From Verrucomicrobiota bacterium (GTDB taxonomy: Bacteria; Verrucomicrobiota; Verrucomicrobiia; Opitutales; Opitutaceae): a DNA stretch of 64,000 bases. The position numbers were made by a program, and so were the translations under genes. Of the stretch, positions 11,946-61,058 are shown one piece after another (positions within the stretch are counted from its first letter, which is position 1; each line of letters opens with the position of its first letter). The stretch lies in NCBI GenBank assembly GCA_023446735.1, contig JAEXPQ010000150.1, forward strand, positions 22,257-86,256, given 5' to 3'. A model generated the notes under the pieces. The model saw only the letters and a list, made by a program, of their open reading frames with translations. It was not told the origin of the DNA and ran no database searches.

Positions 11946-12029
11946 AGGCTTCGTGAAGGTGGGGTGATAGCTGTGCTTCTGCGAGAAAACCAATTGTGAG
12001 TGAAGCGGGTGGTGTATCGTGAAGGACCC

Positions 12030-35621: not shown

Positions 35622-38600
35622 CTATGGCGCGGCGGGGTCGTGCAGCAGCACGACCTCGCGGGCGAGGGCGACGTGCTGCGGCAGCACCTTGCGGTGATCG
35701 TAGGCGCGCAGGACTTTCGAGTAGGCCGTCGGAGCGAGCGATTTGCCGCTGCGCTCCTTGGCAAGGCAGGTGCGCATCGTGCGGGAGAGGCCTTCGACAT
35801 CCCCGGGTTTTACCAAGTAGGCTTCGGCGCGCGGGAGCACCATCTCGGGGATGCCATGGACGTCGGTCGTGACAATCGGGGTACGGAACGCCATCGCCTC
35901 CATCACGACCCGCGGAAACGACTCCTCGTAGCTGGTGCAGACGAAGAGATCCGCGAGCAGGAAAAAGTCGTAGGCCTCGCGGGTCTCGGGCACGAGGGTG
36001 AGGTTGCCCAATCCGAGTTGTTCGATGTCGGCCTCGAGCCAATCGAGGTAGATCCCCGGGCGGGCGCCGACGAGGACGAAGCGCACCGATTGCGCGCCGC
36101 GGTGGTGGCGGTTGAAATGCTCGATGGCGCGGATGAAGACGTGCTGGCCCTTGCGCTCGCAGACGGTGCCGATGTTCACCACGATCGTCTCGTCGGTGCG
36201 GAAACCGTGTTTGCGGCGCAGTTCGTCCCGTGTGTGGGCGGCCCGGAAGGCCTCGATCCCGGCGAGGTCGATCCAGCTGCGGACGAGGCGGAAGTTGTCG
36301 CGGCGGTTGCAGTCCTCGTAGTACGCCCGGGTGGCCGCGCAGAGGAACAAGGTGCGGTCCGCCTCAGCGAGGGCCTGCTCGACCACCCGGTGCATCGGCC
36401 GCGCCAGCATGTGCTCGAAGAACCGGAAGAGCGTGGTGCTTTCGTGGATGTAGAGCAGCGAGGGCTTGCCCGCCTGGCGAGCGAGGGGCACGCCCCAGAA
36501 GCCGACGAGGGTGTTGCAGACGACGAGATCGATCCGGTCGAACGGCAACGTGGCGCGCAGCGTGGCGAGGCGTTCGTGGAGCTGGGCCTCGTTCGGCGCG
36601 GAGTAGAACTGGTGGCGGTCGACGATCCGAATCTCGGCGCCGAGTTCCTCGTAACGGGGGCGGATCGGGCCCTCCTCGTTTGACACGACCGTGATCGTGA
36701 AGCCGGCTTCGCGAACCAGGTGCGTGGCGTACTCGAGCAGGAAGAGCGGCGCGCCTTCCAGGTTCAGGTTGTGCGTGAGCAGCAGCACGTGCAGCCGCCC
36801 GGCGCGGTCGGTGTGGGCGCAGGCCGCGCCGCGGCACCGTGGCCGCATCTGGCCGTCGAGCACGAGGTGGCGGCTGAAGTACGGGTCGCGCGACAGCGGG
36901 TAGCGGCGCACGAAGGCCACGTGCTCGGACTCGTCGAAGGTGACGCCGCGCGTGGCGCTGCCGCGGTGGACGAGCGTCGCTTGCGGCGTGTACACGCACC
37001 GTTGGCCGGCTGCGATGGCGCGCAGGCAGTAGTCGACGTCGTTGTACGCGACGCCGAAATCCCGCTCGTCGAAGCCTCCAAGGTCGCGATACAGCGAGGT
37101 GCGCGTCATGAGGCAGGCGCCGGTGACGGCGGAGACCTCGCGTGCGACGGAGTGCCAGATCACCGGCGTGGCGCGCTCGTCGGCCTTTGCGAGCGGTGTG
37201 TCCGCGAGGCCCTCGTGCGGGCCGATGACGACACCGGTGTGGTTGAGTGTGCGGTCCGGATAAACCAGTTTTGCGCCGACGACCCCTACATCGGGTTGCG
37301 CGAACCAGCCGGCCATCTCCTCGAGCCAGCCGGGCTCCAGCGCTTCGACGTCGTTGTTGAGGTGGAGGATCAGTGGCGTGTCGACGTGGGGCAGCGCGAG
37401 GTTGACCAGATGCGAGTAGTTGAACGGCGCGTGCACGTCGGCCGGCCGGACCACGGTGCAGCGCAGGTCCGTGCGCTGGGCCATCCGCGCGAGAAAGCGG
37501 GTGGCGTCGGCATCGCGGGAGTGGTCGTCGACGATGACGAGTTTCGCGTGGCGCCAGTCGACGGTCTCCTCGAGGTGCTCGATGCACTCCTGGAGGAGGT
37601 AGAGTTTGTCCCGTGTCGGGATGACGATGGTGACGGGGTTGGCGGCGAGAAACGCGCCGCTCCAGCGGAGTTGGTGGAGGTTGAGTCGGCGCTGGCGGGC
37701 CGCTTCCGGCAGGAAGGGCGCGGCGGAAAGGCCGCGGCGGCGCATCGTGTCCTCAAGGGCGAGGCGCGCTTGTTCGATGGCGGGTGCAGCGGGGTCGATG
37801 GTCTCCGGCCGCTCGGCGCGGGCGTGATGGCAGACGAACGGAAGGTGGGCGACCTGCGCGGGAGCGAGTTCGTCGCCGAGGCGTAGCAGTAGGTCGAACC
37901 AAGGGACGTCCGGATACTCGGGGCGGAAGGAGCCGAGGGCGATGAACCGTTCGCGGCGCACGAGGCTGAGCTGTCCGGGGTAGAGGCCGGAGAGCGCGAG
38001 CGCGGGGCTCCAGTCGGGCTTGAAGGCGGGGGCGGAGCGCCGACCGGTGGCGTCCATGCGATCCTCGTCGGTGTAGATCAGCTCGAGGTCAGGTTGCTTG
38101 GCCAGGGCCTCGGCGGCGTGGAGGAGCGCATCGGGCGAGAGACGGGAGTCGCCGGGCAGGAGCGCGAGGTATGTGGCAGCAGATTCTTGGGCGGCGGTGT
38201 TGAGGGCGCGGATGCGGTCCGCGCCGCCCGCGTGTGCGATCGCGCGGCAACGCGGTTCGGCGGCGAGGACGGCGGCAAGTTCGGGCTGAGCGGGGCCGCC
38301 GAGGACCAGGCGTGCTTCCCACTGCGGAAAGATCTGGGCGGTGAGCGAGGCGACGAGTTGCTGCAATTCCGGGCCGCGGCAGCCGTAGCCGTCGATGAGC
38401 AGGAGGAAGCGTGGGCCTTCGGTCTGGAGGGTGGCCGCGGAGGTGCGCATGGCGGCGAGCACGCGGGGGGCGAGGCGGTTGGCGTGCTGCCACGCGGCGT
38501 AGGGATCGGTCGGCGGCGGGACACGTTGGGCGAGGCCGACGGGCGCGTCGCGGCGGAACCCGTCGCGCGTGAGTTTGGCGGCGGCCCAGAGGGCCTTGAG

Positions 38601-39542
38601 CGAGCCTAGCGGGATGCCTTGGCGACGGGCTGCGGCATGAAGGGCGCGCCCCGTTTCGAGAAGGAGCCGGTCGGAGAACTCGGGCAGCGGGCGCTCGCGC
38701 GCGGAACAGGTTCTCTGATACACGCGGCGGACCCACACGAGGTGACGCGAGCCGTCCGCGAGCTCGGCGAAGATGCGGACGCACACCGGGTTCGGCGCGT
38801 CCTCCGCGAGATCGAGCATGCCGAAGAACTGCGCGTTCCGGGCGTACGGATGACCGGGAAACCGGGCGGCGGCCTCCGCGCTTTCGCGGTGCTCGTGCCG
38901 GATGGTGTTCTCGACCTGCGGGTGGGTGCTGCCCAGGAGGCGGACGATGCGCTGGTCCTGATGGATGAGCCAGCCATCGACCCGGATCTTGCCGAACTGC
39001 GTGTCGGCGACGCGCAACGGAGTTTCAAGCACGCCATGGAAGGGCGCGCGGGGCAGGGTGTCGAACGAGAGGGCGGCGGCGGCCGCGGCCAGGCGGTCGG
39101 CGGCGGGCGCGAGGTCGCCGCCGGGTTCGGCGCGGCGGATTTGCAACAGTTCCCGCCAGATCGCGGGGAGGATCTCGACATCGAGCGGCGGCGGGGTTGC
39201 GGGGCCGGAGCGCACTTCGATGGGCGTCCGCCAGATTTCGACCCAGTTGCGGCCGGCGTCGAAGAGTTCGAGGCGGAGCTCGGTCGCGCCGCGGGGGGGC
39301 AGCACATCGATGGCGAAGCCCGCGTGCGGCCGGCCGAGGCGACCGCGGTGACGTTGTTCCGCGTGCGGGTGCGGCAAACCGAGGACGCCGAGATAGACGC
39401 GGCCGCCGATCACGGCGCGAATGTCGGAGAAAACGGCTTCGGTCTTCGCGAGAAACCATCCGGAGATCCGGGTGGTTTGGCCGTCGAAGACCCAGCTGGA
39501 GGGGTGCTCGACGTCGAAGATGTAGGCGTTGTTCTCGTTCAT
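35622..39542 (-). CDS. 1306-aa multidomain glycosyltransferase (two tandem N-terminal beta-domains + GT2-like + GT2 + GT4 modules)
   Basis: GT2 module: VTIVIPTRDKLYLLQECI...LVIVDDHS...HLNNDVEAL. An upstream GT2-like module has IYTDEDRMD. C-terminal GT4 module: HVLLLTHNLNLEGAPL...CTSYEESFPRVVMEAMAFRTPIVTTDVHGIPE. The start is set to ATG 39542 (MNENNAYIF). Confidence 0.85.
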   Translation of the reverse strand: MNENNAYIFDVEHPSSWVFDGQTTRISGWFLAKTEAVFSDIRAVIGGRVYLGVLGLPHPHAEQRHRGRLGRPHAGFAIDVLPPRGATELRLELFDAGRNWVEIWRTPIEVRSGPATPPPLDVEILPAIWRELLQIRRAEPGGDLAPAADRLAAAAAALSFDTLPRAPFHGVLETPLRVADTQFGKIRVDGWLIHQDQRIVRLLGSTHPQVENTIRHEHRESAEAAARFPGHPYARNAQFFGMLDLAEDAPNPVCVRIFAELADGSRHLVWVRRVYQRTCSARERPLPEFSDRLLLETGRALHAAARRQGIPLGSLKALWAAAKLTRDGFRRDAPVGLAQRVPPPTDPYAAWQHANRLAPRVLAAMRTSAATLQTEGPRFLLLIDGYGCRGPELQQLVASLTAQIFPQWEARLVLGGPAQPELAAVLAAEPRCRAIAHAGGADRIRALNTAAQESAATYLALLPGDSRLSPDALLHAAEALAKQPDLELIYTDEDRMDATGRRSAPAFKPDWSPALALSGLYPGQLSLVRRERFIALGSFRPEYPDVPWFDLLLRLGDELAPAQVAHLPFVCHHARAERPETIDPAAPAIEQARLALEDTMRRRGLSAAPFLPEAARQRRLNLHQLRWSGAFLAANPVTIVIPTRDKLYLLQECIEHLEETVDWRHAKLVIVDDHSRDADATRFLARMAQRTDLRCTVVRPADVHAPFNYSHLVNLALPHVDTPLILHLNNDVEALEPGWLEEMAGWFAQPDVGVVGAKLVYPDRTLNHTGVVIGPHEGLADTPLAKADERATPVIWHSVAREVSAVTGACLMTRTSLYRDLGGFDERDFGVAYNDVDYCLRAIAAGQRCVYTPQATLVHRGSATRGVTFDESEHVAFVRRYPLSRDPYFSRHLVLDGQMRPRCRGAACAHTDRAGRLHVLLLTHNLNLEGAPLFLLEYATHLVREAGFTITVVSNEEGPIRPRYEELGAEIRIVDRHQFYSAPNEAQLHERLATLRATLPFDRIDLVVCNTLVGFWGVPLARQAGKPSLLYIHESTTLFRFFEHMLARPMHRVVEQALAEADRTLFLCAATRAYYEDCNRRDNFRLVRSWIDLAGIEAFRAAHTRDELRRKHGFRTDETIVVNIGTVCERKGQHVFIRAIEHFNRHHRGAQSVRFVLVGARPGIYLDWLEADIEQLGLGNLTLVPETREAYDFFLLADLFVCTSYEESFPRVVMEAMAFRTPIVTTDVHGIPEMVLPRAEAYLVKPGDVEGLSRTMRTCLAKERSGKSLAPTAYSKVLRAYDHRKVLPQHVALAREVVLLHDPAAP

Positions 39543-39829
39543 GCCGGGCGGCGCGGAAGGGCGCCACTCAAGACGGCGGCTGGAGCCGGCGCAAGCGCGG
39601 GGGCGGCGGTGGTCGACGCTGGCCTCGGCCAACACGATGCCGTTGCCGCAGGTTCACGAACGCTCGCGCTCGCACCAATGGTACAACTTTGGGTCGGCGT
39701 GCTTGCCGTTTCGACCGGCTCAAGGCCCGCGCCGCTCGAGGGGCGCGCGCTCTCTGACGCGCGAGCATGTTCGCAGCCAGCCCGGCAGCCTCCATCCGCG
39801 GTTTCCGGGGCGACTCGAAGAAGCTGTGC

Positions 39830-49278: not shown

Positions 49279-49572
49279 ACGGTTGGTATGTCTGGATCGC
49301 CTTCCATCATCTGGAAGGCGGTCCCGATGGGCTCGCTCAATCGGTAGCCACCGCCCCGCTTGCGAAGCCTCTGTGCTCGCTTGGTTCAATCCATGAGACC
49401 GTCTCGACGGTCCTCCCGTTCCCCTGCCAGCGAGGCGGGCTTGATGTTTTCACGTACCAAACCGCCGCGCGTTGCGCAAGCCGGCGGTATGCGTTGGCTG
49501 GCTCGATTCGTGCATTGCGATTGCGAATCGTTCGCGATTTCTACCGAATCCCGATCCCACATCAAAGAAACT

Positions 49573-52245
49573 ATGAACAAACCGAAAGCTCGAACCAAGG
49601 TGCTGACCCGTACCTTGAGCCACTTCGCGTGGTCATCCCTGTTGTTGACCGCTGCCCTTCAGGCGCAGACGACGCCCAGCTCTTCCGCCCCAGCCTCGGA
49701 GGTGGAGAGTGAAGACGATGGTGTCGTGATCCTCGACAAGTTCGAGGTAGTGGGTTCGCGAATCAAGCGCATCGACGCTGAGGGGCCGAATCCCGTTGTT
49801 GCCATTCACCGCACCGACCTGAACCTCGCCGGATACTCCAGCGTCGGCGAAGCCCTGCGCTCGATGCCGATCATCAGCGGCTCCTCCCTCCGGCCCGCGG
49901 CGTCGAACAACAGCTTCACCCCTGGCGCCTCGACCGTGAATATCCGCGGCTTGGGCAACAACAACGTCCTCGTCCTGCTCAATGGGCGCCGGGCGGCTCC
50001 GTTGAGCACGCCTGGTTTCGATGGCCTTCAGACAATGTTCGACCTGAACAGCGTGCCGACGGCTGCGATCGATTCGATCGAGGTTCTGAAGGACGGTGGC
50101 TCCGCGATCTACGGCTCGGACGCCGTTTCTGGTGTCATCAACATCAAGATGCGCAAGAACTTCAGCGGGGTGTCCGTCGCCGGCGAGTTCGGCAACAATG
50201 TCGGGACCGACGCATGGGAGAAATCCTTCTCGATGGTCCACGGGACGACTGCGGGAAAGACATCTTTGCTTGTCGCCCTGGACTTCAAGGCGGCCGATCG
50301 ACTCCGAGATCGCCAGTACACATTCTCGGCGAACGCCGACGCCACGGATCGCGGCGGCGACGATCTGCGCAGCTACGCCGGTTATCCGGCGATGGTGTAC
50401 GTTCCGAGTCTGGACTGGTATTACACGCTCAGCGCCCCCAAGGCCAATCCGACGCTGGCCGATTTCGTGGAGGCCGATGTGAGCCACGGTACGTACAACT
50501 TCCAGTCCGTCACCGACTTGACTCCAAAGACCCGGGACTACGGTTTCTATTCCCATCTCGATCATACCTTCAACGAGCACGTCACGGGCTTCATGGAGGT
50601 CTCCTTCCGCCGGTCGCAGTCGGAGATCGGAGCCGCCCCGAGTCCGGTCTTCAGCTATAGCGAGAACGGTACCGGACCGAACACCGGCACTTTGACAATC
50701 CCGTCGACCAATCCGAACAACCCGTTCGGCGAAGATCTCGAGGATGAGTGGTATGCCCGCCTGGTGCATGCGGGCAACCGCATCAACGACGTGACGTCCG
50801 ACACGCCGCGCGTGCTGGTGGGTGTCCGAGGTGAGATCCCCTCATCCGACACTTGGTCTTGGGAGACGGCTGCGCTGTATTCGAAGAATCGTGCCAAGAA
50901 CCTCAACCGCGGCACGGTCTTCGACGACCTCTACCAAGCGGCGTTGAACGGAGTCTCGATCGGCGGCCAGACCTTGTTCGCCAACCCCTTCGGACCGGAA
51001 GACCCCCGCGTGACCGCCACCTACGTTGGCGATAACCCGACGGGCTCCAGCTTCGTCCTCAAGGCCTGGGACTTTTCGACCAGCGGCAAGCTCTTCGATT
51101 TGCCCGCGGGTCAGCTTGGTCTGGCGCTCGGCGGCGAGGTTCGCGCTGAGGACTTCGCCAACAACCAGACGGTCCAAAACGAGACCGGCAACATCGTCGG
51201 TGGGGCCGAGGGTTCCTCGGTTTCGGGGGATCGCGAAGTTTACGCCTTCTACACCGAGTTGGCGGTTCCGATCGTGAAAAACCTCGAAGCGCAGCTGGCG
51301 GGTCGCTTCGAGCACTATTCCGACTTCGGCTCTGCAACCAAGCCGAAGGTCGCGCTCTCGTACAAGGCCGCGCCGTGGCTGCGCTTCCGGACCTCGTTCG
51401 GTCAGTCGTTCCTCGCGCCGAATCTGTCCTATCTCTACACCGAGCAGATCACGACCTTCTCCTCCTCGCCGCTGGTGGACCCCAAGCGTCCGAACGATGC
51501 GCCGCGGCAGATTCAGACCAAGTCTGGCGGCAATCCGGATCTCCAGCCCGAAGAGACGGACACCCTTTACGCCGGCTTTCAATTTGAGCCTGCCGGAGCA
51601 TTCAAAGGCCTGGCTGTCTCGGTTGATTGGTTCCAGTTCAAGCAGAAGAACCTGATCGCCCAGCTCGGCGATAGCTTCATCCTCGCTCACGAGGACGAGT
51701 TGCCGGGCAAGGTTGTGCGCAACTCGCCGGCGTCCGGTGAGACCAACGGCGTTATTAGCTACATCAACGACGCGTACGACAACTTCGACGGCCTCACGTA
51801 TCGTGGTTTTGATTTCGATGTCCGCTACGACTTCGAGACGGCCTCTTGGGGTACGTTCCGTCTCAACGCCGCCGCGACCTTCATGAGTCAGTACGCCTAC
51901 AAGGCGAGCGACGGCATCAGCCAGTTGGCGGGCGAGTACAACCAGCCCAAATGGCGTAGCACCTACTCGGTCGAGTGGCGCCGCGGCAACTGGGGTGCCG
52001 CGGTGTTCTGCGAACACGTCGGCACGTTCCGAAACTACGACGAGTCCGGCTTCATCGGAAATCAGTTCCTCGTGAATCCGCAGGTTTCCTACTCGGGCTT
52101 CGCCCGCACCAAGGTCACCGTCGGGGCGCGCAATGTGTTCGACCGCGATCCTCCCTTCGACCGCCACTCGTCGACCGCATGGAACGACAATATCCACAAT
52201 CCGCAGAAGGCGTTCGTCTACGTGCGACTCGAGCGTGAGTGGTAA
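49573..52245 (+). CDS. TonB-dependent receptor (paralog of 44175-47186)
   Basis: LDKFEVVGSRIKRIDAEGPNPV...LLNGRR...IDSIEVLKDGGSAIYGSDAVSGVINIKM and terminal ...YVRLEREW. It shares the LLTAALQ(S/A)QT signal-peptide end and the AAGAAACTATGA start context with the first receptor. Confidence 0.92.
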   Translation: MNKPKARTKVLTRTLSHFAWSSLLLTAALQAQTTPSSSAPASEVESEDDGVVILDKFEVVGSRIKRIDAEGPNPVVAIHRTDLNLAGYSSVGEALRSMPIISGSSLRPAASNNSFTPGASTVNIRGLGNNNVLVLLNGRRAAPLSTPGFDGLQTMFDLNSVPTAAIDSIEVLKDGGSAIYGSDAVSGVINIKMRKNFSGVSVAGEFGNNVGTDAWEKSFSMVHGTTAGKTSLLVALDFKAADRLRDRQYTFSANADATDRGGDDLRSYAGYPAMVYVPSLDWYYTLSAPKANPTLADFVEADVSHGTYNFQSVTDLTPKTRDYGFYSHLDHTFNEHVTGFMEVSFRRSQSEIGAAPSPVFSYSENGTGPNTGTLTIPSTNPNNPFGEDLEDEWYARLVHAGNRINDVTSDTPRVLVGVRGEIPSSDTWSWETAALYSKNRAKNLNRGTVFDDLYQAALNGVSIGGQTLFANPFGPEDPRVTATYVGDNPTGSSFVLKAWDFSTSGKLFDLPAGQLGLALGGEVRAEDFANNQTVQNETGNIVGGAEGSSVSGDREVYAFYTELAVPIVKNLEAQLAGRFEHYSDFGSATKPKVALSYKAAPWLRFRTSFGQSFLAPNLSYLYTEQITTFSSSPLVDPKRPNDAPRQIQTKSGGNPDLQPEETDTLYAGFQFEPAGAFKGLAVSVDWFQFKQKNLIAQLGDSFILAHEDELPGKVVRNSPASGETNGVISYINDAYDNFDGLTYRGFDFDVRYDFETASWGTFRLNAAATFMSQYAYKASDGISQLAGEYNQPKWRSTYSVEWRRGNWGAAVFCEHVGTFRNYDESGFIGNQFLVNPQVSYSGFARTKVTVGARNVFDRDPPFDRHSSTAWNDNIHNPQKAFVYVRLEREW

Positions 52246-52504: not shown

Positions 52505-54497
52505 GTTAGCCCGACTTCCGCAACTGGCGGGGTCGGGAAACGCAAGTCGTTGATCCAGCGCCCGACCATGGCAAAGGTCGGGACTACACAGGCCTGCGCG
52601 CCGGACCGATCTTTGGCGGGGGTTGCGCGGGGAGCGAGCGGCCGAGCCGGTCGAGCAGGAGCGCGATGTCGTGGTCGGGTTCGGTGCGGCGGCGCAGGAG
52701 CAGCTCGCGGCCGTCGGTGGTGGGGATGATCACGTCGAGCATCTGCAGGCCGGCGAGTTTCTCGAGGACCACGCGCGGCATCAGGCCCGGGGCGAGCGGG
52801 CGCAGCTGTTGGCGCAGGGTGATGGACAAGCAGTACGCCAGGAAGGCGACGAAGAGGTGCGCCTCGATGCGCTCGGGCTTGTGATGGAAGATCGGACGCA
52901 GCCCCAGGTCGCCCTTGAGGGTGCGGAAGGCTTCCTCGACGTGGCACAGCTGCATGTAGCAACGCCAGACCAACGCAGGGTCGTCGGCGCCCAGGTTGGT
53001 GCGCAGCAGGTAGCGGCCCTCGCGGCAATGGGCCCGCCACAGCGCGGCACGATCGAGCTGGTAATCGAGGGCGCCGGTGGCGGCGACCTCGACCTTCACC
53101 AGACCGGTGACGACGCGTCCGGCGGCGTGCTGCGCGGCGCCGAGCTTCTTGAGCAACGTGTCGCGGTCGGGCTCTTGTTTCTTCAGTTCGCCCAAACGTT
53201 TCCAGTACGCCCGCAGCAGCCGGCGGCGCATGCCGCGCTCCTTGCCGATGCGCGCGCCGCTTTCGGCCAGCACGTAGAGTTCGCCCTCCTGCGGGAGCAG
53301 TTTCACGCGCAGCCGCTCGCGGACCTCGCTCCAGGGCAGTGCGGCGAGCTCGGCCTCCAGCTTGGTCAAGCGCCCCTTGGGCGTACCGACCAGATAGCGC
53401 ACCTGCGGATCGGCCGCGCGCAGTTCGGCAAGGACCTTCTCGGTGGGGATGCCGCGGTCCATGACCCAGATCCGTTCGGCCTGGCCGTAGCGGCGCTGGA
53501 TCGTGGCGAGCATGTCGCGCAGCGTGGTTTTGTCGGCGGTGTTGCCGGGCAGCATCTCGTAAGCCAAGGGCAGCCCGTCGGGGGTGACCACCAGCGCCAC
53601 CACGACCTGGACACAGTCGCCGCGCTTGTCGCGGCTGTAGCCGAAGCGCCGCGGATCGTCGGGGTCGGCGGGCACGGCGCACTCGAAGTAGGTGCTGGTC
53701 AGGTCGTAGAGCAGCACCTCGAACTTCGCCGCGAACAGGTCGCTCCAGCGCGCGCGCAGATGCCCGAAGAGCTCCTCCTTGTGCGGCAGCAAGAGGTCGA
53801 GGCAGCGGTAGAGCGTGTCGTCCTGCGCCGCACGCTCGTCGACCCCCAGCAGGTCGGGCAACGCGGTCGTGCCGAACCAATGCCGGTGCAGCCGCCACTC
53901 GCTGCCCGGCGCGAGCAGCCGGTAGATCGTCAGGATGCGCAGGATCTTCTCCCAATCCGTGCCCTCGCGGCCCAGGGGCAGACGCGCGCCGAAGAAGTCG
54001 TCCAAATGCAGCGTGCGCCAGAGTTCGTCGGCCAGCCAACACGCGCCCCACTGCCGGGGCTGCTCCAGCCGCAGTCGGTCGAGACGGACCTGCACCGCGT
54101 CGGCCCCGTCGGGCGGGAGCCGGTCGGCCGGGAAGAGCGCGAGCTGGCGCGATTGCCCGCTGTCCTCGTCGAAGACGCGGATGCTGCGCTGCCACGCCTC
54201 CCGCTGGCTGTCGTTGATCTCGCCCAGGTAGAGCACGTGGCGATGCGCCACCTTCCCGTCGCTATACCGACGGCTCTCCACCACCGACCAGGAGCGGTGC
54301 TCTTTGCCGTCCTTCTTGCGGATACGACACTTCAGGAACACGCCCGCAGTTTACCAGCCCGCCACCGGCGTGGATAGAGGGCAGGTCGGGACTACATGCA
54401 CTTTGGCAAAGTGCGATCACGCCCAGCCAACGACTTGCGCGCGCCAATCCCCCGAAAATACCCGGAAATCGCCGCCAGTTGCGGAAGTCGGGTTAGC
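52505..54497 (-). mobile_element. IS1634-family insertion sequence (~2.0 kb) with 26-bp imperfect terminal inverted repeats
   Basis: Left end GTTAGCCCGACTTCCGCAACTGGCGG (52505-52530). Reverse complement of the right end (54472-54497) is GCTAACCCGACTTCCGCAACTGGCGG, a 24/26 match. A second subterminal inverted match CGCAAGTCGTTG lies at both ends. It carries a single long transposase ORF. Confidence 0.85.
52584..54341 (-). CDS. IS1634-family (IS4 superfamily) DDE transposase
   Basis: 585 aa, uninterrupted. N-terminus MFLKCRIRKKDGKEHRSWSVVESRRYSDGKVAHRHVLYLGEINDSQREAW is the characteristic opening of this transposase family as I recall it. Confidence 0.85.
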   Translation of the reverse strand: MFLKCRIRKKDGKEHRSWSVVESRRYSDGKVAHRHVLYLGEINDSQREAWQRSIRVFDEDSGQSRQLALFPADRLPPDGADAVQVRLDRLRLEQPRQWGACWLADELWRTLHLDDFFGARLPLGREGTDWEKILRILTIYRLLAPGSEWRLHRHWFGTTALPDLLGVDERAAQDDTLYRCLDLLLPHKEELFGHLRARWSDLFAAKFEVLLYDLTSTYFECAVPADPDDPRRFGYSRDKRGDCVQVVVALVVTPDGLPLAYEMLPGNTADKTTLRDMLATIQRRYGQAERIWVMDRGIPTEKVLAELRAADPQVRYLVGTPKGRLTKLEAELAALPWSEVRERLRVKLLPQEGELYVLAESGARIGKERGMRRRLLRAYWKRLGELKKQEPDRDTLLKKLGAAQHAAGRVVTGLVKVEVAATGALDYQLDRAALWRAHCREGRYLLRTNLGADDPALVWRCYMQLCHVEEAFRTLKGDLGLRPIFHHKPERIEAHLFVAFLAYCLSITLRQQLRPLAPGLMPRVVLEKLAGLQMLDVIIPTTDGRELLLRRRTEPDHDIALLLDRLGRSLPAQPPPKIGPARRPV

Positions 54498-54586: not shown

Positions 54587-55192
54587 CTATCCCCCCCCCG
54601 CGACAGTCATCGCTCCCTGCCGCGTGGATTGATGGGTGTCGTTGCGGCGCTGCTCGTCCTTGAAGTCCATCCACGCGTTGCCCCGCCCTGCCCCTGCTGG
54701 TCGTTCTTGGGCCGGAAGCTCTTCAACGAAGCCCACGCCTCGATCAACGTGCCATCGACGCTGAAGTGCTCGTCGGAGATCCAGCCATGTGAGGTAGGCC
54801 AACTCGACGACCTCGGCGAAGAACAGGTCGGCCACGGCGAGGGAGATCAGGCGCCCCTAGTTCTTGCTGAAGACCGAGGCGTCGAAGACGGCCTGCTCCA
54901 AGGGCGGGTCGATGAACCAGCGGAACAGCAGGTCGGTCTGCAGCCGCGCGCACAGCTGCTGGTCCGAACGCACCGTGTAGAGTGCCTGCAGTACCTTTGC
55001 CCTCAATAGGGGATCCGGCGGGTTCCAGGGTGCGCCGTCCTCCGCGTCGATCTCGTCGAAGTGCGCATCCATCTCCCGCAGCACCTCGTCGCACATCCGC
55101 TTGATCGCTCGGATCGGATGATCGGCGGCGATCAACGTCTCCACGTTGATCAGACTCACGAAACTGGGCTGGACGGGACGATGGCCTCGCAT
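54587..55192 (-). pseudogene. IS5/IS1182-like transposase remnant (N-terminal half, stop + frameshifts)
   Basis: DHPIRAIKRMCDEVLREMDAHFDEI...LLRAKVLQALYTVRSDQQLCARLQTDLLFRWFI...VFSKN is an InsH/DUF772-type N-terminal domain ending at an in-frame TAG (54857-54859). The continuation (...SDEHFSVDGTLIEAWASLKSFRPK..., ...DFKDEQRRNDTHQST) is only readable by switching frames. A C9 run lies at 54591-54599. The gene is cut off at the IS1634 right end. Confidence 0.75.
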
Positions 55193-55437
55193 GGTGACTC
55201 CAAAAACCAAGAACACGCAGTTTCGTTCAATCAATCTCGGACTTTCCCAGCAGCCTGCTAAGCAGCAACTCGTTGATAGCCATTTTACGGGTGAGCGGAG
55301 AAAAAGTGTTGATGAAAAGGTGTTGTTCGGAAGCGTTTTTTTCTAACGCGGATTCGGCCCACACGGATTAGAGCGTAGTCAATAACCAGAAACTTACTTC
55401 AGGGAAAACCTGAGTTGGTGGCTGCTGCCTGTTCGTA

Positions 55438-56319
55438 GTGTGTAAAATGCGCAAGTACCCAAGCTTGGAATCTGACCTGCCGGAGTGGTTCCATCCATTT
55501 CGGCCACCTCGAAACTTCTCATGCATGAGAAAGGCTGTACCGAAGCGAACAGCAGAACACCCCGTAGATGGAGGATTGATCGTCGCTTCTAGTGCCCTTG
55601 TTCGACAAGAGTTAAGGGCGGGAGTTTGTGCAGTTGTGAAGAGTGCCCCTGTGCGTGTCGTCCAAAGGGGGGAGTGTGCGCTCGTCACTCTACTGGAAAA
55701 GCAGGTCAACATCCTTGTGATTGGTCTGTCACTTCCCGACTGGGATGGGATCGACGTCGCATTGGCTGCGCAACGTATTGGTGCGGCCCGGCAGATTGTG
55801 CTGTGTGTGGACCGTTCGTGCGAGCGGGACTTTGATCTGCTGCATGTAAGTGAAAGCACGCTACTCTCGAGTTCTTGTGTTTATCCGGGGTACTGGCTTA
55901 GGCAGGAGGTCGTGTTTGCGACGGGTTTGGGCCGTAGCAGTGGTCGGCACGTGAGTGCGGATCTCCAGAGAGATTGGCGTCGACGTAGGGTTGAACGGCG
56001 GTCCTATCTTCACCGATTAACACCCGCCCAGGTGCGTTTTCTGGCGTTCGCAGGCGGCGGCCTCGGGGATAAAGAAGTTTCTGACCATTTTAGGATCAGC
56101 GTGCATACAGCGCGCGCACACCGTAAAGATGTCATGAGAAAGTTAGACCTTCACTCTCATGCGGAAATGATTCGCTACGCGTCCATCTGCGGGCTGGTGC
56201 GTTTCACTGAAGAGCGCGTTCTGCGCCCGGGGTTCGATGTTGACCAACTTATGGCTTCAGCGGCAAAGCAAATAGCTCTTCGCGCAAAGAAGTGTCCTTT
56301 AGTTGCACCGTCGGTTTGA
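55438..56319 (+). CDS. LuxR/GerE-type HTH transcription regulator with degenerate receiver-like N-domain
   Basis: C-terminal LTPAQVRFLAFAGGGLGDKEVSDHFRISVHTARAHRKDVMRKLDLHSHAEMIRYA is a GerE-type HTH. The N-terminal domain has receiver-like beta/alpha spacing, but the acidic pocket is replaced (LIVASSALV instead of DD; ILVIGLSLPDWDG instead of D). The start is uncertain (ATG 55438 or internal MRKAV). Confidence 0.75.
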   Translation: MCKMRKYPSLESDLPEWFHPFRPPRNFSCMRKAVPKRTAEHPVDGGLIVASSALVRQELRAGVCAVVKSAPVRVVQRGECALVTLLEKQVNILVIGLSLPDWDGIDVALAAQRIGAARQIVLCVDRSCERDFDLLHVSESTLLSSSCVYPGYWLRQEVVFATGLGRSSGRHVSADLQRDWRRRRVERRSYLHRLTPAQVRFLAFAGGGLGDKEVSDHFRISVHTARAHRKDVMRKLDLHSHAEMIRYASICGLVRFTEERVLRPGFDVDQLMASAAKQIALRAKKCPLVAPSV

Positions 56320-56420
56320 ATGCCGGCCCCTCCCCCTCTTGGCGACCGATCTCTATGCTCTACGAAGCTTGTTCGGAGAAGCCGAGAAAACCATTCCCAC
56401 TCTGTGCGTAGCCCCAAAAC

Positions 56421-56429
56421 GGGGGGGGG
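56421..56429. repeat. G9 homopolymer in regulator-adaptor intergenic region
   Basis: ccaaaac-GGGGGGGGG-caag, 94 nt upstream of the HlyD-type gene ATG, in a locally ~50% GC context. Confidence 0.9.
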
Positions 56430-56522
56430 CAAGTTTGGTTCGTGGATCCCCTAGCTCAAATTGGGGTATTCGGTGGAATTGTGGGCGAACGGGTGGAGGT
56501 ATGAGAATCAGATAAAGTCGGA

Positions 56523-57713
56523 ATGGATAATGACCGAATGCTTCCTGCGGTTGCGCGCGCCCGCGATACAGTAGAGGCGCTAAACGCCGAGAACGGAACT
56601 CCCCGCAACTGGGTGTTCTGGTCGGCCGTTGCAGCTTCGGCAGCGTGTTTGATCGCCCTTCCCTTGGTGGAAGTAACCGTGACGGTGCGAGCCCCCGGAA
56701 TTGTCAGACCGGTCGAAGCTCCAGTGGAGATCCGAGCGCCGGTATCAGGTTGTCTCGCTGAAGTATTTGCAAAGGAGAATGTTGCGGTCTCTGCGAATGA
56801 ACCTCTATTCGAGATCGGCGCGCCTGAAAGTGACGAGCGAATGGAGACCCTGCAGCGACGCAGCGACGAACTTGAACCACTGCTGCACGATCTTGTCGCC
56901 CTTACAGAAGCCAATGACCTCAAAGAGGTGATTGTGCCTTCCGCGGTTGCGGAAGGCGCTCTCCGGACTCCACTTTACCGTAGTGAGCTTCTGAGGCTTC
57001 GCTCGGTTCTTGCGGCGTCAAATGTTGAGCGAGCCCAACTCGCCCGGGAGCTAGAGCGCACGAAGGCTCTTCACTCGCGGAGGTTAATCCCCGATAAAGA
57101 CCTCGACGCGGCGTGTGACGCGATCGGCCGTATCGAAGCATCTACAGATGCGACTGTTGCTGACGTTCTGGCTCGTTGGCAGGCAGAGCGGAGGAACTGT
57201 GAGGACACGAGAAAGTCAATTCAGAGCGATATCCGTGAACTGGTGGAGCTAAGGGCTCGCCGGCTTGTGCGGGCCCCTGTTGCTGGGGACCTTATCGGCT
57301 TTAGTGGTTGGAAGAAAGGGGTGTTCGTTGCTGAGGGACAGGTTATTGCGGCAATCTCGCCTCCAGGGGCCATGCGGGTAGAGACGTCGATCCGTTCCCG
57401 GGACCTTGCGCTACTGGCTCCGGGCCTTCCGGCGCGTGTTGAATGCGAAGCATTTCCGGCCACCGAATGGGGGTACCTCGATGGCTTTGTCGAGTCGATC
57501 GATCGTGATGTCAGATGGATCGATGGCCTCGCCAGTCGACGAATGCTGGTCGGCTTCATGCCAACTGGGCCAGAGGGTGGCGCAAAGTATGCGAATCGAT
57601 TGCAGAAGGGGATGGGCGCTGTTGTTCGAGTCGTCGTCGGTCGTCGCAGTCTCTGGCACTATCTCACCGAAAGTACAAATCGTTGGCTGGAGGAGAGTCC
57701 GAATGGAAAATAG
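56523..57713 (+). CDS. HlyD-family periplasmic adaptor (bacteriocin/microcin secretion accessory protein, CvaA-like)
   Basis: N-terminal TM segment WVFWSAVAASAACLIALPLV. Lipoyl-like VRAPGIVRPVEAPVEIRAPVSGCLAEVFAKENVAVSANEPLFEI. A coiled-coil middle. VRAPVAGDLIGF...GQVIAAISPPGAMRVETSIRSRDLALLAPGLPARVE beta-barrel domain. Confidence 0.85.
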   Translation: MDNDRMLPAVARARDTVEALNAENGTPRNWVFWSAVAASAACLIALPLVEVTVTVRAPGIVRPVEAPVEIRAPVSGCLAEVFAKENVAVSANEPLFEIGAPESDERMETLQRRSDELEPLLHDLVALTEANDLKEVIVPSAVAEGALRTPLYRSELLRLRSVLAASNVERAQLARELERTKALHSRRLIPDKDLDAACDAIGRIEASTDATVADVLARWQAERRNCEDTRKSIQSDIRELVELRARRLVRAPVAGDLIGFSGWKKGVFVAEGQVIAAISPPGAMRVETSIRSRDLALLAPGLPARVECEAFPATEWGYLDGFVESIDRDVRWIDGLASRRMLVGFMPTGPEGGAKYANRLQKGMGAVVRVVVGRRSLWHYLTESTNRWLEESPNGK

Positions 57714-57781
57714 GCGAGTCAACCAATCGCGGATGCATGTGCACTGCTGCTCTGCTTGCTCGCTTCGAGTAAAGGTCGAAT

Positions 57782-57810
57782 TTTACTACGCCAATATGGT
57801 GTAGTATATT
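57782..57810 (+). promoter_or_regulatory. candidate sigma-70-type promoter for the peptide genes
   Basis: TTTACT (57782-57787), 17-nt spacer, TATATT (57805-57810), 26 nt upstream of the first peptide ATG, in a ~35% GC stretch. The consensus for this phylum is assumed, not known. Confidence 0.35.
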
Positions 57811-57835
57811 GTAAGGCAAAACAAAACGGTAACCC

Positions 57836-58024
57836 ATGAATATGCAAAAATGCTTAGATGAATCGGAGCTCGCATCAATTGGCGGTGGCTTTGCCCCCTT
57901 GGGGGGTGGCAACTTGCCGCAGCCCCCGTCGAATACTGGTATAGATTTCACATTTAACTTTCTCTGGATGCTCCGAAACCTTTCGGAGCCCAGCAATACT
58001 TGGAGGCCGCGCGAGAGTGATTGA
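57836..58024 (+). CDS. double-glycine-leader precursor peptide 1 (class II bacteriocin/microcin-like)
   Basis: 62 aa. The leader MNMQKCLDESELASIGGG fits the GG-leader consensus relative to cleavage after G18 (-1/-2 GG, -4 I, -7 L, -8 E, -12 L). The 44-aa core is FAPLGGGNLPQPPSNTGIDFTFNFLWMLRNLSEPSNTWRPRESD. Confidence 0.7.
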   Translation: MNMQKCLDESELASIGGGFAPLGGGNLPQPPSNTGIDFTFNFLWMLRNLSEPSNTWRPRESD

Positions 58025-58078
58025 GCGGGATTCGGGCTCCCGAGCAATTTGTCCTGATCTAAAATTTTAGCGAACAGA

Positions 58079-58279
58079 ATGTCCCAAACAAACACTAAAA
58101 ATATGAAAGAGCTCACAGTAAATGAGATGCAAGCAATACAGGGGGGGCTGGCTCCTCTTGTGTATATTGGTTCCCTTCTTGTTGGCGCGGGGGGGTACGT
58201 GCTAAAAGATATATATGACAACTGGGGGGTTTTTAAGGAAGGTTTTGCGGATGGGCAGAGTGTCTGGAAAAAAAAGTAA
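58079..58279 (+). CDS. double-glycine-leader precursor peptide 2
   Basis: 66 aa (or 58 from the internal MKEL start). The leader ...MKELTVNEMQAIQGG has -4 I, -7 M, -8 E, -12 L. The 43-aa core LAPLVYIGSLLVGAGGYVLKDIYDNWGVFKEGFADGQSVWKKK has a GxxxG-type hydrophobic helix and a cationic tail. Confidence 0.75.
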   Translation: MSQTNTKNMKELTVNEMQAIQGGLAPLVYIGSLLVGAGGYVLKDIYDNWGVFKEGFADGQSVWKKK

Positions 58280-58281
58280 CA

Positions 58282-58461
58282 ATGGATACACTAAATGATA
58301 GCCAGATGGCTCTTGTTAATGGCGGTGGCGCGGAGGCTGTCCGCGATATTGCCCAGTTTTGTGGCGGATTTTGGGAGGGGCTAAAGATTTTTGGCCCTGG
58401 CCCAGATGGTCACTTTACTGGGGCGATAGCAATGGGGATCGTCTCTGCCAAGAGCAAATAA
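58282..58461 (+). CDS. double-glycine-leader precursor peptide 3 (below the 60-aa ORF-track cutoff)
   Basis: Hand-translated as MDTLNDSQMALVNGG|GAEAVRDIAQFCGGFWEGLKIFGPGPDGHFTGAIAMGIVSAKSK (59 aa). The leader has -4 V, -7 M, -12 L. It starts 3 nt after the stop of peptide 2. Confidence 0.65.
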   Translation: MDTLNDSQMALVNGGGAEAVRDIAQFCGGFWEGLKIFGPGPDGHFTGAIAMGIVSAKSK

Positions 58462-58473
58462 TCTATATCTCGG

Positions 58474-58504
58474 GTCGCCGGGCAAGATCTGCTCGGCGAC
58501 TTTT
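58474..58504 (+). terminator. weak rho-independent terminator/attenuator after peptide 3
   Basis: GTCGCCG...CGGCGAC 7-bp stem (58474-58480 / 58494-58500) followed by TTTT. Confidence 0.4.
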
Positions 58505-58515
58505 CGATTGACTAC

Positions 58516-58644
58516 ATGAGAATCTCCAACGATGAACGAAGCGCGATCCTTGGGATCGTTAGCGGTTGGATTGTTGCAATTTCGCTAGTTGAAAACTGGA
58601 CTGCGCTCGTGCGGTTGGTGGCGATATTGATGAAGTGGAGTTGA
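58516..58644 (+). CDS. 42-aa hydrophobic ORF (speculative immunity/accessory peptide)
   Basis: Hand-translated as MRISNDERSAILGIVSGWIVAISLVENWTALVRLVAILMKWS. It has one or two hydrophobic helices. It sits between the precursor peptides and the exporter, where immunity genes often lie. There is no other support. Confidence 0.25.
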   Translation: MRISNDERSAILGIVSGWIVAISLVENWTALVRLVAILMKWS

Positions 58645-58928
58645 CTCGATCCGTTCTGGTTGGGGCGCAAGTTCTTTGGAATGTTGTGCCGAAGTAGCTC
58701 TCGCATTTTCGGTAGCGCGAATATTCGACCGATTTCAGGCTTTAGTGACGGAACGCGGTTGCTGGTACGTCGTTTGTTTGCGTCTCTGGCCCGCGTAAAG
58801 CATGCCTCGCGAGCAGGGTGAGTCGATTTGTCTGGCTCAGCGGGTCAGCTTGTTCATCAGTTTTGTTCGTTGTCGCCGGTGGGCGCTATAGCATGCAAGA
58901 AGATCGCTGATGTGTGGAAATCAAACTC

Positions 58929-61058
58929 ATGAGACAACGAGACCAGTCTGACTGTGGGCCAACCTGCCTGGCCTATCTTGCCCGCCGTTACGGCCTGCGG
59001 GTTTCGATTGCTCAATTGCGCTTGGCTGGTGGAACGGACCGGCAGGGCACGTCTGCGCTTGGTTTGGTTAATGCGGCGAAGACAATAGGCCTATCCGCTC
59101 GGGGATTTCGCGCTGAGTTGAGTTCGGTCGGCGAGGCGCCTGTGCCGTTTATAGCCCATTGTCGCTTACCCAATCAGTTGCTTCACTATGTTGTCGTTTG
59201 TGGGTTTCGGATTGGGGTGCGCGTTCGGGTTATGGACCCGGCTGTGGGTCGTGAAGAATGGTGGCCTTGGGAGCAGTTTTCTGCTGTGTTTACTGGGGTG
59301 CTCTTGTTGGTTTCCCCAGAACCGTCACTCGCCCCAAGCGATAGGCGCGATGTCGGTCGGACTCCGCTCCGTCGTCTTTGGTTGTTGTTGCGGCCGCATC
59401 GGACGCTTTGGCTTCAGGCATTTGTCGGCGCGGTGTTCTCTACTGCATTGGCGCTTGCGACATCCCTTTATGTCGAGAATTTGATGGACCGTGTTATTCC
59501 TGACAGCGATCGCCGTTTGCTTATCCTAATGAGTTTAGGCATGCTTGTCGTGCTTGGTTTGCGAGTAATGCTCGGTGTGCTGCAGAACCGTCTCGCTTTA
59601 TATACGGCGCAGCGTATCGATGCGAGTCTCATCCTGGGTTATTACAAACATCTGCTTGGGTTGCCGCAAGTTTTCTTCGATTCGATGCGAGCCGGGGAGA
59701 TAGTGTCCAGGGTTAGTGATGCTGTTAAGATCCGTGAGTTTCTCAATAGCACTTTGGTTAATATTGCTCTTCAGCCGCTTATTCTGATTTTTGCCCTGGT
59801 TGCGATGTTTATTTACTCTTGGAAACTGGGCCTTATTTCAGTAGCCTTGGTTCCGTTGTTGGCGGCCGTATGGTGGTTCGCCAATCGATGCAACCGACGG
59901 CAACACCGAGCCCTCATGGAGCGTAGTGCTGATTTCGACGCTCAACTGGTCGAGTCGCTTCATGCGCAACGCGTGATTCGTGGATTTGGTCTCGAAGAAG
60001 AGTTTGCGCTCCGAAACGAGAGTCGTCTTGTCCGGCTGTTGCGCACAGTCCGGGGAGTGGCGAACACTGGAATACTGACCGGTTCCGCAAGTGCGCTAAT
60101 AACCCAGGGGTTCTCTCTGCTATTGCTTTCGTTTGGGACCTCTCTTGTTCTTTGTACGGAGATCACTCCGGGTGAGCTTTTCTCATGCTATACGTTGGCT
60201 GGATACCTTACAGGCCCTTCGTTGGCGCTAGTCGGGCTCAATGCCAGTATTCAGCAAGCGCTAGTGGCGACGGATCGTCTGTACGAAATCATGGACCTGG
60301 AGCTTGAGAAGGAGTCGGGTTCGGTTCACATGGTTGAGCGCCATGCGAAGTGGCCGATTGTGTTCGACAGGGTTACATACCGCCATGCGGGGCGGCTGCC
60401 TGTGCTCGCCGACTTTTCCGCGACTATTGCTCCAGGGGCGGTATCTGTGTTTACCGGTGCATCGGGATGTGGGAAAAGCACAGCATTGGCTTTATTGCAG
60501 CGTCTATACCGACCCGAGACAGGTCGGATTATGATCGGGCAGATTGATCTAGCCCACTATACCTTCGGCAGCTTAACTGCAGCGATTGGTGTCGTGCCGC
60601 AAAAGGTGGATCTGCTTGCTGGTACGATCTTGGAGAACTTGGTGCCTGGGACAGCCGAACCAGACCTGGAGGCGCTAGTTCGTTTGTGCCGAGAGGCAGG
60701 TTTCATGGATTTTATAGATCGCCAACCTCAAGGCTTCTTCACGCTATTGAATGAGAACGGGCTGAATTTGTCGGGTGGGCAGCGCCAAAAGCTTGCGATT
60801 ATCCGCGCTCTGTTTCGGCGACCTTTGATTCTTTTGCTTGATGAACCGAGTTCTGCACTGGACGAAGAAGCCGAGTCTCAGCTAATTGAGATGCTCCGAC
60901 GGAGGCGCGAACATGGCACCACCATCGTGATGGCTGCGCACAGCCCCCGACTTCTCTCTATCGCAGACAATTTAATCCATATTGGCGCGCGCCCGAGTGC
61001 AGCGGAGCGGAGTTGCGATCATATGGCTCTATGTCGTACAGAGGCTGCGATGAAGTAG
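58929..61058 (+). CDS. peptidase-C39-containing ABC transporter (PCAT/AMS-type bacteriocin maturation and export protein, CvaB/ComA-like)
   Basis: The N-terminal C39 domain has all catalytic residues: Q-x5-C (RQRDQSDCGPTCLA), His (LLHYVVVCG) and Asp (VMDPAVG). Six TM segments follow. The NBD has GASGCGKST, LSGGQRQ and LLLDEPSSALD. GTG 58914 is an alternative start. Confidence 0.9.
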   Translation: MRQRDQSDCGPTCLAYLARRYGLRVSIAQLRLAGGTDRQGTSALGLVNAAKTIGLSARGFRAELSSVGEAPVPFIAHCRLPNQLLHYVVVCGFRIGVRVRVMDPAVGREEWWPWEQFSAVFTGVLLLVSPEPSLAPSDRRDVGRTPLRRLWLLLRPHRTLWLQAFVGAVFSTALALATSLYVENLMDRVIPDSDRRLLILMSLGMLVVLGLRVMLGVLQNRLALYTAQRIDASLILGYYKHLLGLPQVFFDSMRAGEIVSRVSDAVKIREFLNSTLVNIALQPLILIFALVAMFIYSWKLGLISVALVPLLAAVWWFANRCNRRQHRALMERSADFDAQLVESLHAQRVIRGFGLEEEFALRNESRLVRLLRTVRGVANTGILTGSASALITQGFSLLLLSFGTSLVLCTEITPGELFSCYTLAGYLTGPSLALVGLNASIQQALVATDRLYEIMDLELEKESGSVHMVERHAKWPIVFDRVTYRHAGRLPVLADFSATIAPGAVSVFTGASGCGKSTALALLQRLYRPETGRIMIGQIDLAHYTFGSLTAAIGVVPQKVDLLAGTILENLVPGTAEPDLEALVRLCREAGFMDFIDRQPQGFFTLLNENGLNLSGGQRQKLAIIRALFRRPLILLLDEPSSALDEEAESQLIEMLRRRREHGTTIVMAAHSPRLLSIADNLIHIGARPSAAERSCDHMALCRTEAAMK

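Follow-up and report, generated by a model that had tools for sequence, protein, structure and literature searches.

Class IIb bacteriocins such as lactococcin G and plantaricins EF and JK are built from two different peptides, encoded by adjacent genes that share an operon with a single immunity gene, and a GxxxG motif present in both peptides has been proposed as the helix-helix interface of all characterised members (PMC2850506). Research on class II microcins has centred on Enterobacterales (PMC9746304, PMC12219008), and small immunity genes adjoin the toxin genes in microcin and other bacteriocin loci (PMC12219008, PMC2761928). Literature searches for bacteriocins of Verrucomicrobia and Opitutaceae returned nothing specific and no characterised example. 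The locus described here lies in a stretch of 64,000 nucleotides (nt) from contig JAEXPQ010000150.1 (positions 22,257 to 86,256; assembly GCA_023446735.1), referred to as the window, whose host is probably a member of the Opitutaceae (Verrucomicrobiota). It carries a trio of genes for small secreted peptides with double-glycine (GG) leaders, designated PepA, PepB and PepC, which is flanked by export genes and, judging from the sequence, most likely encodes antibacterial toxins.

According to the preferred reading, to which a probability of about 0.65 is assigned, the locus would be a class II system of the bacteriocin or microcin type in a diderm bacterium, with unmodified GG-leader peptides and a two-peptide toxin as its core. 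This reading draws on the gene anatomy, the conservation and pairing of the peptide genes, features of leaders and exporter, motifs in the cores, and the lack of modification genes. On the plus strand, the gene order is regulator, HlyD adaptor, PepA, PepB, PepC, a membrane protein of 42 amino acids (aa), and a peptidase-containing ATP-binding cassette transporter (PCAT). The three peptide genes are:

57836-58024, plus strand: PepA (peptide 1), 62 aa, with a leader of 18 aa, MNMQKCLDESELASIGGG, and a core of 44 aa beginning FAPL
58079-58279, plus strand: PepB (peptide 2), 66 aa, with a leader of 23 aa, MSQTNTKNMKELTVNEMQAIQGG, and a core of 43 aa beginning LAPL
58282-58461, plus strand: PepC (peptide 3), 59 aa, with a leader of 15 aa, MDTLNDSQMALVNGG, and a core of 44 aa beginning GAEAV

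An earlier first-pass annotation of this DNA had described three tandem GG-leader open reading frames (ORFs) with cores of 44, 43 and 44 aa, and both coordinates and leader-core splits agree exactly with the present analysis. The same holds for the hydrophobic residues that it placed at positions -4, -7 and -12 (Ile, Leu and Leu in PepA; Ile, Met and Leu in PepB; Val, Met and Leu in PepC) and for position -8, which is Glu in PepA and PepB and Gln in PepC. An alternative PepB start, an ATG at 58103, would give a leader of 15 aa. Hydrophobic residues at -7 and -12 are a property of the leaders in the wider families, being found at both positions in 14/14 PepC relatives, and in 22/24 (-7) and 20/24 (-12) PepB relatives. 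The calculated masses of the unmodified cores are 4978 Da for PepA, 4703 Da for PepB and 4495 Da for PepC.

A strict leader motif, [LIVMF]xxx[EQ][LIVMF]xx[LIVMF]xGG within 30 aa of the start codon of an ORF of 40-120 aa, has four matches in the window, three of which are PepA, PepB and PepC. In 200 dinucleotide shuffles of the window the mean was 0.145 matches and the maximum two, so that the equal frequency in shuffled sequence under which the first-pass annotation would have given up its prediction is not what is found. With a looser motif, three matches within 1 kb on the same strand occurred in 0/200 shuffles. The clustering of PepA to PepC is far beyond chance. The fourth strict match, at 10313-10534 on the plus strand (LYRSELRTVGGG), faces a sulfatase gene on the other strand (10023-11993, minus strand), has no exporter nearby and is most likely due to chance.

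Database searches identified the PepB relatives P0002 and P0003, and a profile search of 1.84e9 representative proteins gave 26 matches at E ≤ 1e-3, most of them GG-leader peptides of 50-95 aa. Matches of the PepB profile to P0010 (2549 aa, with Ig-like repeats) and P0020 were discarded as repeat-driven chance. DNA-level scans found 11 loci in metagenomes and, with the PepB alignment, 5 in genomes, and all five genome loci belong to metagenome-assembled genomes (MAGs) of Opitutaceae; a scan of genome contigs with the PepC alignment found no relative. The probable placement of the window in the Opitutaceae is based on these relatives and on gene content, and is in line with the Verrucomicrobia presumed in the first-pass annotation. 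Pairing was counted over the window and the related loci L002-L024 where these are intact, PepB being cut by the contig end in L003 and L014. Wherever a related locus reaches far enough, the PepB homolog is followed by a PepC homolog. The two genes are separated by 1-15 nt in most loci and by 31-38 nt in L012-L014, and they overlap in L005 and L017; in the window, PepC starts 2 nt past the PepB stop codon.

Both members of the pair show family-specific patterns. In PepB and its relatives, the leader is followed by a Pro residue usually at +2 to +4, an Ala/Gly-rich hydrophobic helix and the motif KDIYDNWGxFKxGxxxG(W/Y/Q)N; in the window the hydrophobic helix is followed by KDIYDNWGVFKEGFADG. 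In PepC and its relatives, the leader and G(D/E)xxxxD(I/L)GQFxG(G/A) are followed by a loop that varies and, at the C-terminus, by a hydrophobic helix, and the window core accordingly consists of an amphipathic helix (VRDIAQFCGGFWEG), a Gly/Pro loop and a hydrophobic C-terminal helix. Small-xxx-small motifs are found at fixed positions in both families, namely W..FK.[GAS]xxx[GAS] in 22/27 PepB relatives (GFADG in the window) and QFxG[GAS]xxx[GAS] in 13/14 PepC relatives (AQFCG/GFWEG in the window). A GxxxG-like helix of core 2 had previously been noted in LLVGAGGYVL; the conserved parts are instead KDIYDNWGxFKxGxxxG in PepB and (V/x)xD(I/L)GQFxGG in PepC. Of two further features that had been pointed out, neither the KKK tail of core 2 nor the lone Cys of core 3 is conserved among the respective relatives. 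AlphaFold2 predicted a helix-kink-helix fold for PepB (predicted local distance difference test, pLDDT, 76) and, with low confidence, a helix-loop-helix fold for PepC (pLDDT 61). Searches of PDB sequences with the PepB and PepC family profiles gave only chance matches (E > 0.2).

Among curated profiles, PepB exceeds the cut-offs of TIGR03949 (25.2 versus 21.5 bits) and TIGR01847 (17.8 versus 15.7 bits), and TIGR03949 is matched by 13/27 members of the PepB family. In the PepC family, 8/14 members match MccV in the leader and N-terminal core (RDIA..GQFxGG), all of them below threshold and with a best E of 0.011. A kinship of PepC with microcin V through RDIA...GQFxGG was considered and, with scores below threshold, is not claimed.

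Comparison of the window with L002 revealed 18 synonymous and 5 non-synonymous codon differences in the C-terminal part of PepB, with 21/28 nucleotide differences at third positions. To judge from these codons, PepB is under purifying selection. The reading frames of PepC, the small membrane protein and PepA are also kept between the two loci. Because related loci keep them with mostly synonymous changes, PepA to PepC are regarded as real genes.

PepA, whose core is rich in Pro and Asn and contains an aromatic patch, has a narrower distribution. A homolog occupies the same slot in L002/L004, where it was located by synteny (BLASTP E 8e-7; FDPLTGPLAPQLPGGNTDF versus FAPLGGGNLPQPPSNTGIDF, sharing FxPLxG..PQxP), and L023/L024 carry a Pro/Gly-rich positional analog with weak similarity (E 0.22). 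It is absent from L020-L022 and from all orphan cassettes, and a word-indexed homology search of 5.8e9 proteins returned no match, not even PepA itself. PepA is an optional component of the locus. The sequence xAPL at the start of cores 1 and 2, which had been taken as a sign of common ancestry or shared recognition, is real and of general occurrence: Pro is found exactly at +3 in 9/24 parsed PepB relatives, others of these have it at +2 or +4, and it is also present in 2/3 sequences of the peptide 1 type. Since Pro recurs near the cleavage site across the PepB relatives, xAPL is a trait of this family that is shared with peptide 1. The first-pass proposal of an unmodified, membrane-active multi-peptide toxin is probably correct as far as these features allow; the functional pair, however, would consist of peptides 2 and 3, which co-occur and abut, and not of peptides 1 and 2, as peptide 1 is optional.

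The remaining elements of the locus are:

55438-56319, plus strand: LuxR/GerE-type regulator whose N-terminal half resembles a degenerate receiver (PF00196 GerE, E 5e-7; public start 55525)
56523-57713, plus strand: HlyD-family membrane-fusion (periplasmic adaptor) protein (PF13437 HlyD_3, E 1.6e-11; TIGR01843, E 2.9e-20)
57782-57810, plus strand: sigma-70-like promoter match TTTACT-17-TATATT, a consensus match 26 nt upstream of PepA
58470-58507, plus strand: GC-rich hairpin followed by UUUU, a terminator or attenuator candidate (minimum free energy -23.5 kcal/mol, z -5.3, 0/200 shuffles as stable)
58516-58644, plus strand: single-pass membrane protein of 42 aa, an immunity candidate (best 19-residue hydrophobic window 1.75, Kyte-Doolittle)
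58676-58798, plus strand: possible second small membrane ORF, uncertain, with a TTG start and 40 aa, AFSVARIFDRFQAL
58914-61058, plus strand: PCAT composed of C39 peptidase, transmembrane domain and ATPase, starting 453 nt after PepC (public start 58929)

The PCAT matches PF03412 over residues 3-137 (E 3e-30), PF00664 (E 1e-46), PF00005 (E 7e-24) and TIGR01193 (E 3e-101), and its C39 domain is complete, with Gln8, Cys14, His91 and Asp108 all present. The C39 exporter noticed earlier beside the peptides thus has an intact catalytic set, and the HlyD-type adaptor is encoded alongside. The PCAT is 76% identical to that of L014 and 53% identical to that of L020, while the adaptor is 65% identical to that of L002 and 35% identical to those of L020 and L023, each of which lies directly upstream of peptide genes. 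Domain profile searches of the island and its flanks found no genes for modification enzymes, in agreement with the earlier remark that genes for lanthipeptide or other modifications are missing nearby; the island comprises the regulator, adaptor, peptides, small ORFs and PCAT.

The regulator is homologous to the regulators beside the cassettes of L005-L021 (E 1e-9 to 8e-19), and a homologous GerE-type regulator adjoins the cassette in most loci with sufficient flank. Against Response_reg it scores 13.1 bits (cut-off 30.2), and the receiver domain is likewise below threshold in the regulators of L005 (6690-7586) and L008 (7065-8027), the range for the three being 13-23 versus 30.2 bits; the homolog in L020 has a canonical receiver. 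In a pairwise alignment, the position of the expected phospho-acceptor Asp may be substituted in the degenerate regulators. No histidine kinase is encoded next to the peptide genes, and the combination of kinase and canonical response regulator beside the peptide gene that marks three-component pheromone systems is thus not found.

Promoter-like matches in the region, including the one upstream of PepA, are not more numerous than expected from shuffles. The hairpin after PepC was skipped by a simple terminator scan because its T run consists of only four T; its position would be compatible with strong expression of the structural genes, read-through into those for immunity and export being attenuated. 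A terminator after PepA was also considered and is unsupported (z -0.27).

Full loci with adaptor and PCAT are represented by the window, L002/L004, L014, L020/L021 and L023/L024. L020/L021 repeat the order regulator-adaptor-(PepA)-PepB-PepC-membrane protein-PCAT, and parts of it are found again in L002/L004, L014 and L023/L024. Orphan cassettes, consisting of PepB, PepC, the small transmembrane (TM) protein and the regulator, are found in L005-L007, L012 and L015-L019 (Opitutaceae MAGs and metagenome contigs); their chromosomal site is conserved, the neighbour being a POT-family transporter that is 76-80% identical between loci, and neither adaptor nor PCAT lies within 6-8 kb. L023 additionally encodes a fourth GG-leader peptide (3745-3957; 70 aa, Ala/Gly-rich), followed by a two-helix membrane protein of 68 aa (4035-4241), and on account of these two genes it is viewed as a multi-bacteriocin array.

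A small TM protein of 37-50 aa with one hydrophobic helix follows the pair in most loci (L002-L005, L008, L015-L020 and L023). The family has an invariant Trp and the C-terminal motif GW...(N/H)WxxIKxF, and the 42-aa protein of the window matches its counterpart in L002 with a tblastn E of 2.5e-9. From its position and build, the product of 58516-58644 is a likely immunity factor. The ORF at 58676-58798 shows a weak resemblance to the fifth small ORF in L002/L003 (AFAFFRHWDAFKSL; FFRHWDAFKSLF type); the DNA alignment is ambiguous and tblastn gave no significant match. A possible alternative candidate for a second immunity-like gene is a small ORF at 58828-58932, whose end overlaps the annotated start of the PCAT (58929) through an ATGA.

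In the proposed mechanism, PepA, PepB and PepC would be synthesised as prepeptides and cleaved by the C39 domain of the PCAT after the Gly-Gly sites predicted at G18 (PepA), G23 (PepB) and G15 (PepC). The resulting cores of 43-44 aa would be exported through the PCAT, the HlyD-type adaptor and an outer-membrane channel encoded at an unlinked site. PepB and PepC, which would be co-translated from abutting genes and are both predicted to be helical, would act in synergy as a two-peptide unit which inserts into the inner membrane of related bacteria, or docks on a protein there, and permeabilises it. The producer would be protected by the 42-aa membrane protein, and PepA would be exported as a third, optional cargo, serving as a toxin in its own right or as an accessory peptide. 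Expression of the operon is probably controlled by the upstream LuxR-type regulator.

Several observations weigh against a two-peptide bacteriocin of this kind. The alignment of PepB with TIGR03949 does not extend beyond the leader and the initial ~15 residues of the core, and PepA and PepC reach no curated profile threshold (15.8 bits for PepA against TIGR03949; 14.7 versus 27 bits for PepC against MccV). The search with GG-leader profiles that had been suggested at the outset gave matches above the cut-offs for PepB (TIGR03949, TIGR01847) and sub-threshold matches for PepA and PepC. Characterised class IIb peptides are typically cationic, whereas the net core charges are -1 for PepA, +1 for PepB (isoelectric point, pI, 8.3) and 0 for PepC (pI 6.8), that is, close to neutral. 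The adjacent regulator leaves room for a signalling role. No gene for an outer-membrane factor or TolC-like protein is present in the island, the remainder of the window having been sampled for large ORFs only. Finally, neither PCAT nor adaptor was found within 6-8 kb in most Opitutaceae copies (L005-L019), so that many pairs may be orphans with a differing role.

The peptides could alternatively be three independent one-peptide bacteriocins, the adjacency of PepB and PepC reflecting merely a shared operon. Multi-bacteriocin arrays are common, L023 carries an extra GG peptide and membrane protein, and more than one toxin would suit the second immunity-like ORF that the window, L002 and L003 may have. 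This explanation is nevertheless unlikely, given that PepB and PepC are never apart where the loci are intact and that their genes abut, that one small TM protein follows the pair in most loci, and that both peptides have GxxxG-type motifs at fixed positions. It is quite improbable that at least one of the peptides is a secreted signal which is processed by the PCAT and acts through the adjacent LuxR-type regulator instead of being a toxin. GG peptides do include signals such as ComC and BlpC (PMC7018657, PMC7595303). The presence of a homologous GerE-type regulator with the cassette in most sufficiently flanked loci (L005-L021) and the variable, optional nature of PepA would be compatible with such a role. 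Known inducer peptides, on the other hand, are cationic and about 17-27 aa long, and cores of 43-44 aa with hydrophobic, membrane-type helices next to a conserved downstream TM protein correspond to a toxin/immunity pattern; moreover, a histidine kinase is not adjacent, and the regulators of the window, L005 and L008 have degenerate receivers. The option of a toxin plus an inducer peptide, raised in the first-pass annotation, has become less likely for the same lack of a kinase and because PepA, with its Pro-rich core of 44 aa and a charge of -1, is unlike known inducers.

PCATs also export lanthipeptides and other ribosomally synthesised peptides with post-translational modifications (RiPPs), and the peptides show weak, leader-only matches to Mersacidin and lanthipeptide leader models. 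It is still very improbable that the three are RiPP precursors and that enzymes encoded at other sites in the genome modify their cores: island and flanks are free of modification genes, the sole Cys, in PepC, is not conserved, and conservation falls on aromatic residues, Gly, Lys and Asp and not on Ser/Thr/Cys patterns. It is scarcely credible that the peptide genes are unexpressed chance ORFs with leader-like motifs. The failure to match PepA in 5.8e9 proteins and the chance-like strict match at 10313-10534 would agree with this, but the shuffle statistics, the synonymous bias and the presence of syntenic homologs of all three peptides on other contigs oppose it, and for PepB and PepC this explanation is effectively refuted.

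The small membrane proteins may offer a clue to the origin of immunity. In a profile-profile alignment with hhalign, (N/H)W-x-x-(I/F)K-x-F of the TM family was laid exactly on DNW-x-x-FK-x-G of PepB (E 5.5e-4, probability 30%), whereas the control alignment of the TM family with the PepC family reached 0.6%. In L014, the product of the immunity slot (985-1188) lacks a leader and joins a TM helix to a complete PepB-like tail, FEHWDDFKQGFRDGQHVF, and P0015 is a leaderless membrane protein of the same build with the full C-terminal motif of PepB, YVLVDIYDHWGAFKAGFAEGY. These proteins possibly represent an evolutionary link between toxin and immunity protein. Because W-x-x-(I/F)-K is shared with PepB and because of the fusions in L014 and P0015, the immunity proteins may be leaderless descendants of the toxin. 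The wider proposal, that PepB/PepC is the first diderm two-peptide family of GG-leader bacteriocins, specific to Opitutaceae-like Verrucomicrobia, with immunity proteins that are leaderless, membrane-retained derivatives of PepB, is put forward tentatively and with the odds against it. If true, immunity would operate by mimicry, with a membrane decoy of PepB catching PepC or occupying the receptor.

The locus lies in a region of about 55000-61000 (to 61100) in which the GC content is 48-58%, compared with 63-72% in both flanks. This low-GC block of ~6 kb suggests a horizontally acquired island, an appearance that arises from the low GC content together with transposase genes at the left border. 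To the right of the island, an Mla operon is located on the opposite strand. The features to the left include:

52584-54341, minus strand: DDE transposase, a remnant of an insertion sequence (IS) (PF01609, E 1.7e-13)
54857-55234, minus strand: DUF772 transposase fragment, an IS remnant (PF05598, E 1.5e-12)
35622-39635, minus strand: multi-glycosyltransferase of 1337 aa
44175-47186 and 49360-52245: two TonB-dependent receptors

The part of the window from 1 to 52300 is rich in cell-envelope polysaccharide functions and also encodes other glycosyltransferases, a sulfatase and an S9 peptidase. Scans of the 64-kb window for tRNA genes and Rfam families found no match.

The small genes of this locus are poorly represented in public records. 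PepA and the 42-aa ORF at 58516-58644 are absent from the public gene calls and protein collection, and the NCBI/ENA records start PepB and PepC at internal Met residues, which yields 58 and 51 aa with the leader partly or mostly lost. Gene calls in Logan contain both at full length. The expectation that peptide 3 would be overlooked by annotation was therefore not borne out, as a call exists both in NCBI/ENA (51 aa, from MALVNGGG) and in Logan (59 aa). As a lesson for annotation, two of five small genes are omitted from the public calls and two more have shortened leaders.

This system is of interest on two counts, the conservation of a two-peptide pair within a diderm phylum and the lead on the relation between toxin and immunity protein. 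It is compact and testable, combining a dedicated exporter with three short peptides predicted to be unmodified and one or two tiny putative immunity genes. Work on it could extend the biology of two-peptide bacteriocins to diderms, yield narrow-spectrum agents against the abundant Opitutaceae of soil and freshwater, and show where immunity proteins originate.

Among described systems, the locus resembles class IIb bacteriocins such as lactococcin G and plantaricin EF/JK (PMC2850506) in the abutting pair of GG-leader genes followed by a small membrane immunity gene, which is a candidate here. The pair is adjacent and a conserved small TM ORF comes next in most loci, as in the class IIb gene arrangement, and the GxxxG pattern of this class is found in PepB and PepC. 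Further similarities are leaders of 15-23 aa, cores of ~40-45 aa predicted to be unmodified, GxxxG-type motifs in both peptides and a dedicated C39 exporter. PepB is also similar to the lactobin A/cerein 7B family (TIGR03949), in which it scores above the cut-off with a mainly leader-driven match. In contrast to class IIb loci of Firmicutes, the window locus encodes near-neutral cores and a third GG peptide ahead of the pair, and it contains a HlyD adaptor because the producer is a diderm. For the cores with KDIYDNWGxFKxGxxxG and DxGQFxGG, there is no match among described class IIb peptides or solved structures.

With class II microcins such as MccV and its CvaAB-TolC-Cvi system (PMC9746304, PMC12219008), the locus shares a GG peptide below 10 kDa, a PCAT, a HlyD adaptor and a small inner-membrane immunity protein, again a candidate here. 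PCAT and HlyD adaptor are encoded together with the peptides, as they are in L020 and L023. The cores are rather neutral and predicted to be unmodified, and microcins are often neutral or anionic. The peptides do not belong to the described microcin family in Pfam (MccV), and known class II microcins are single peptides, whereas the window locus has a conserved pair and belongs to Verrucomicrobiota, not Proteobacteria. A similar set of genes is found in mcbABCI of Moraxella catarrhalis (PMC2761928), which encodes the HlyD-like McbA, the PCAT McbB, the GG bacteriocin McbC and the short immunity protein McbI, the latter without database similarity. This Gram-negative system, chromosomal or plasmid-borne, differs in having one bacteriocin of ~100 aa, the order adaptor-PCAT-toxin-immunity and no regulator, and its peptide has no sequence similarity to those of the window. 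The locus is a known type of system in an unusual lineage, built on peptide families that were hitherto undescribed.

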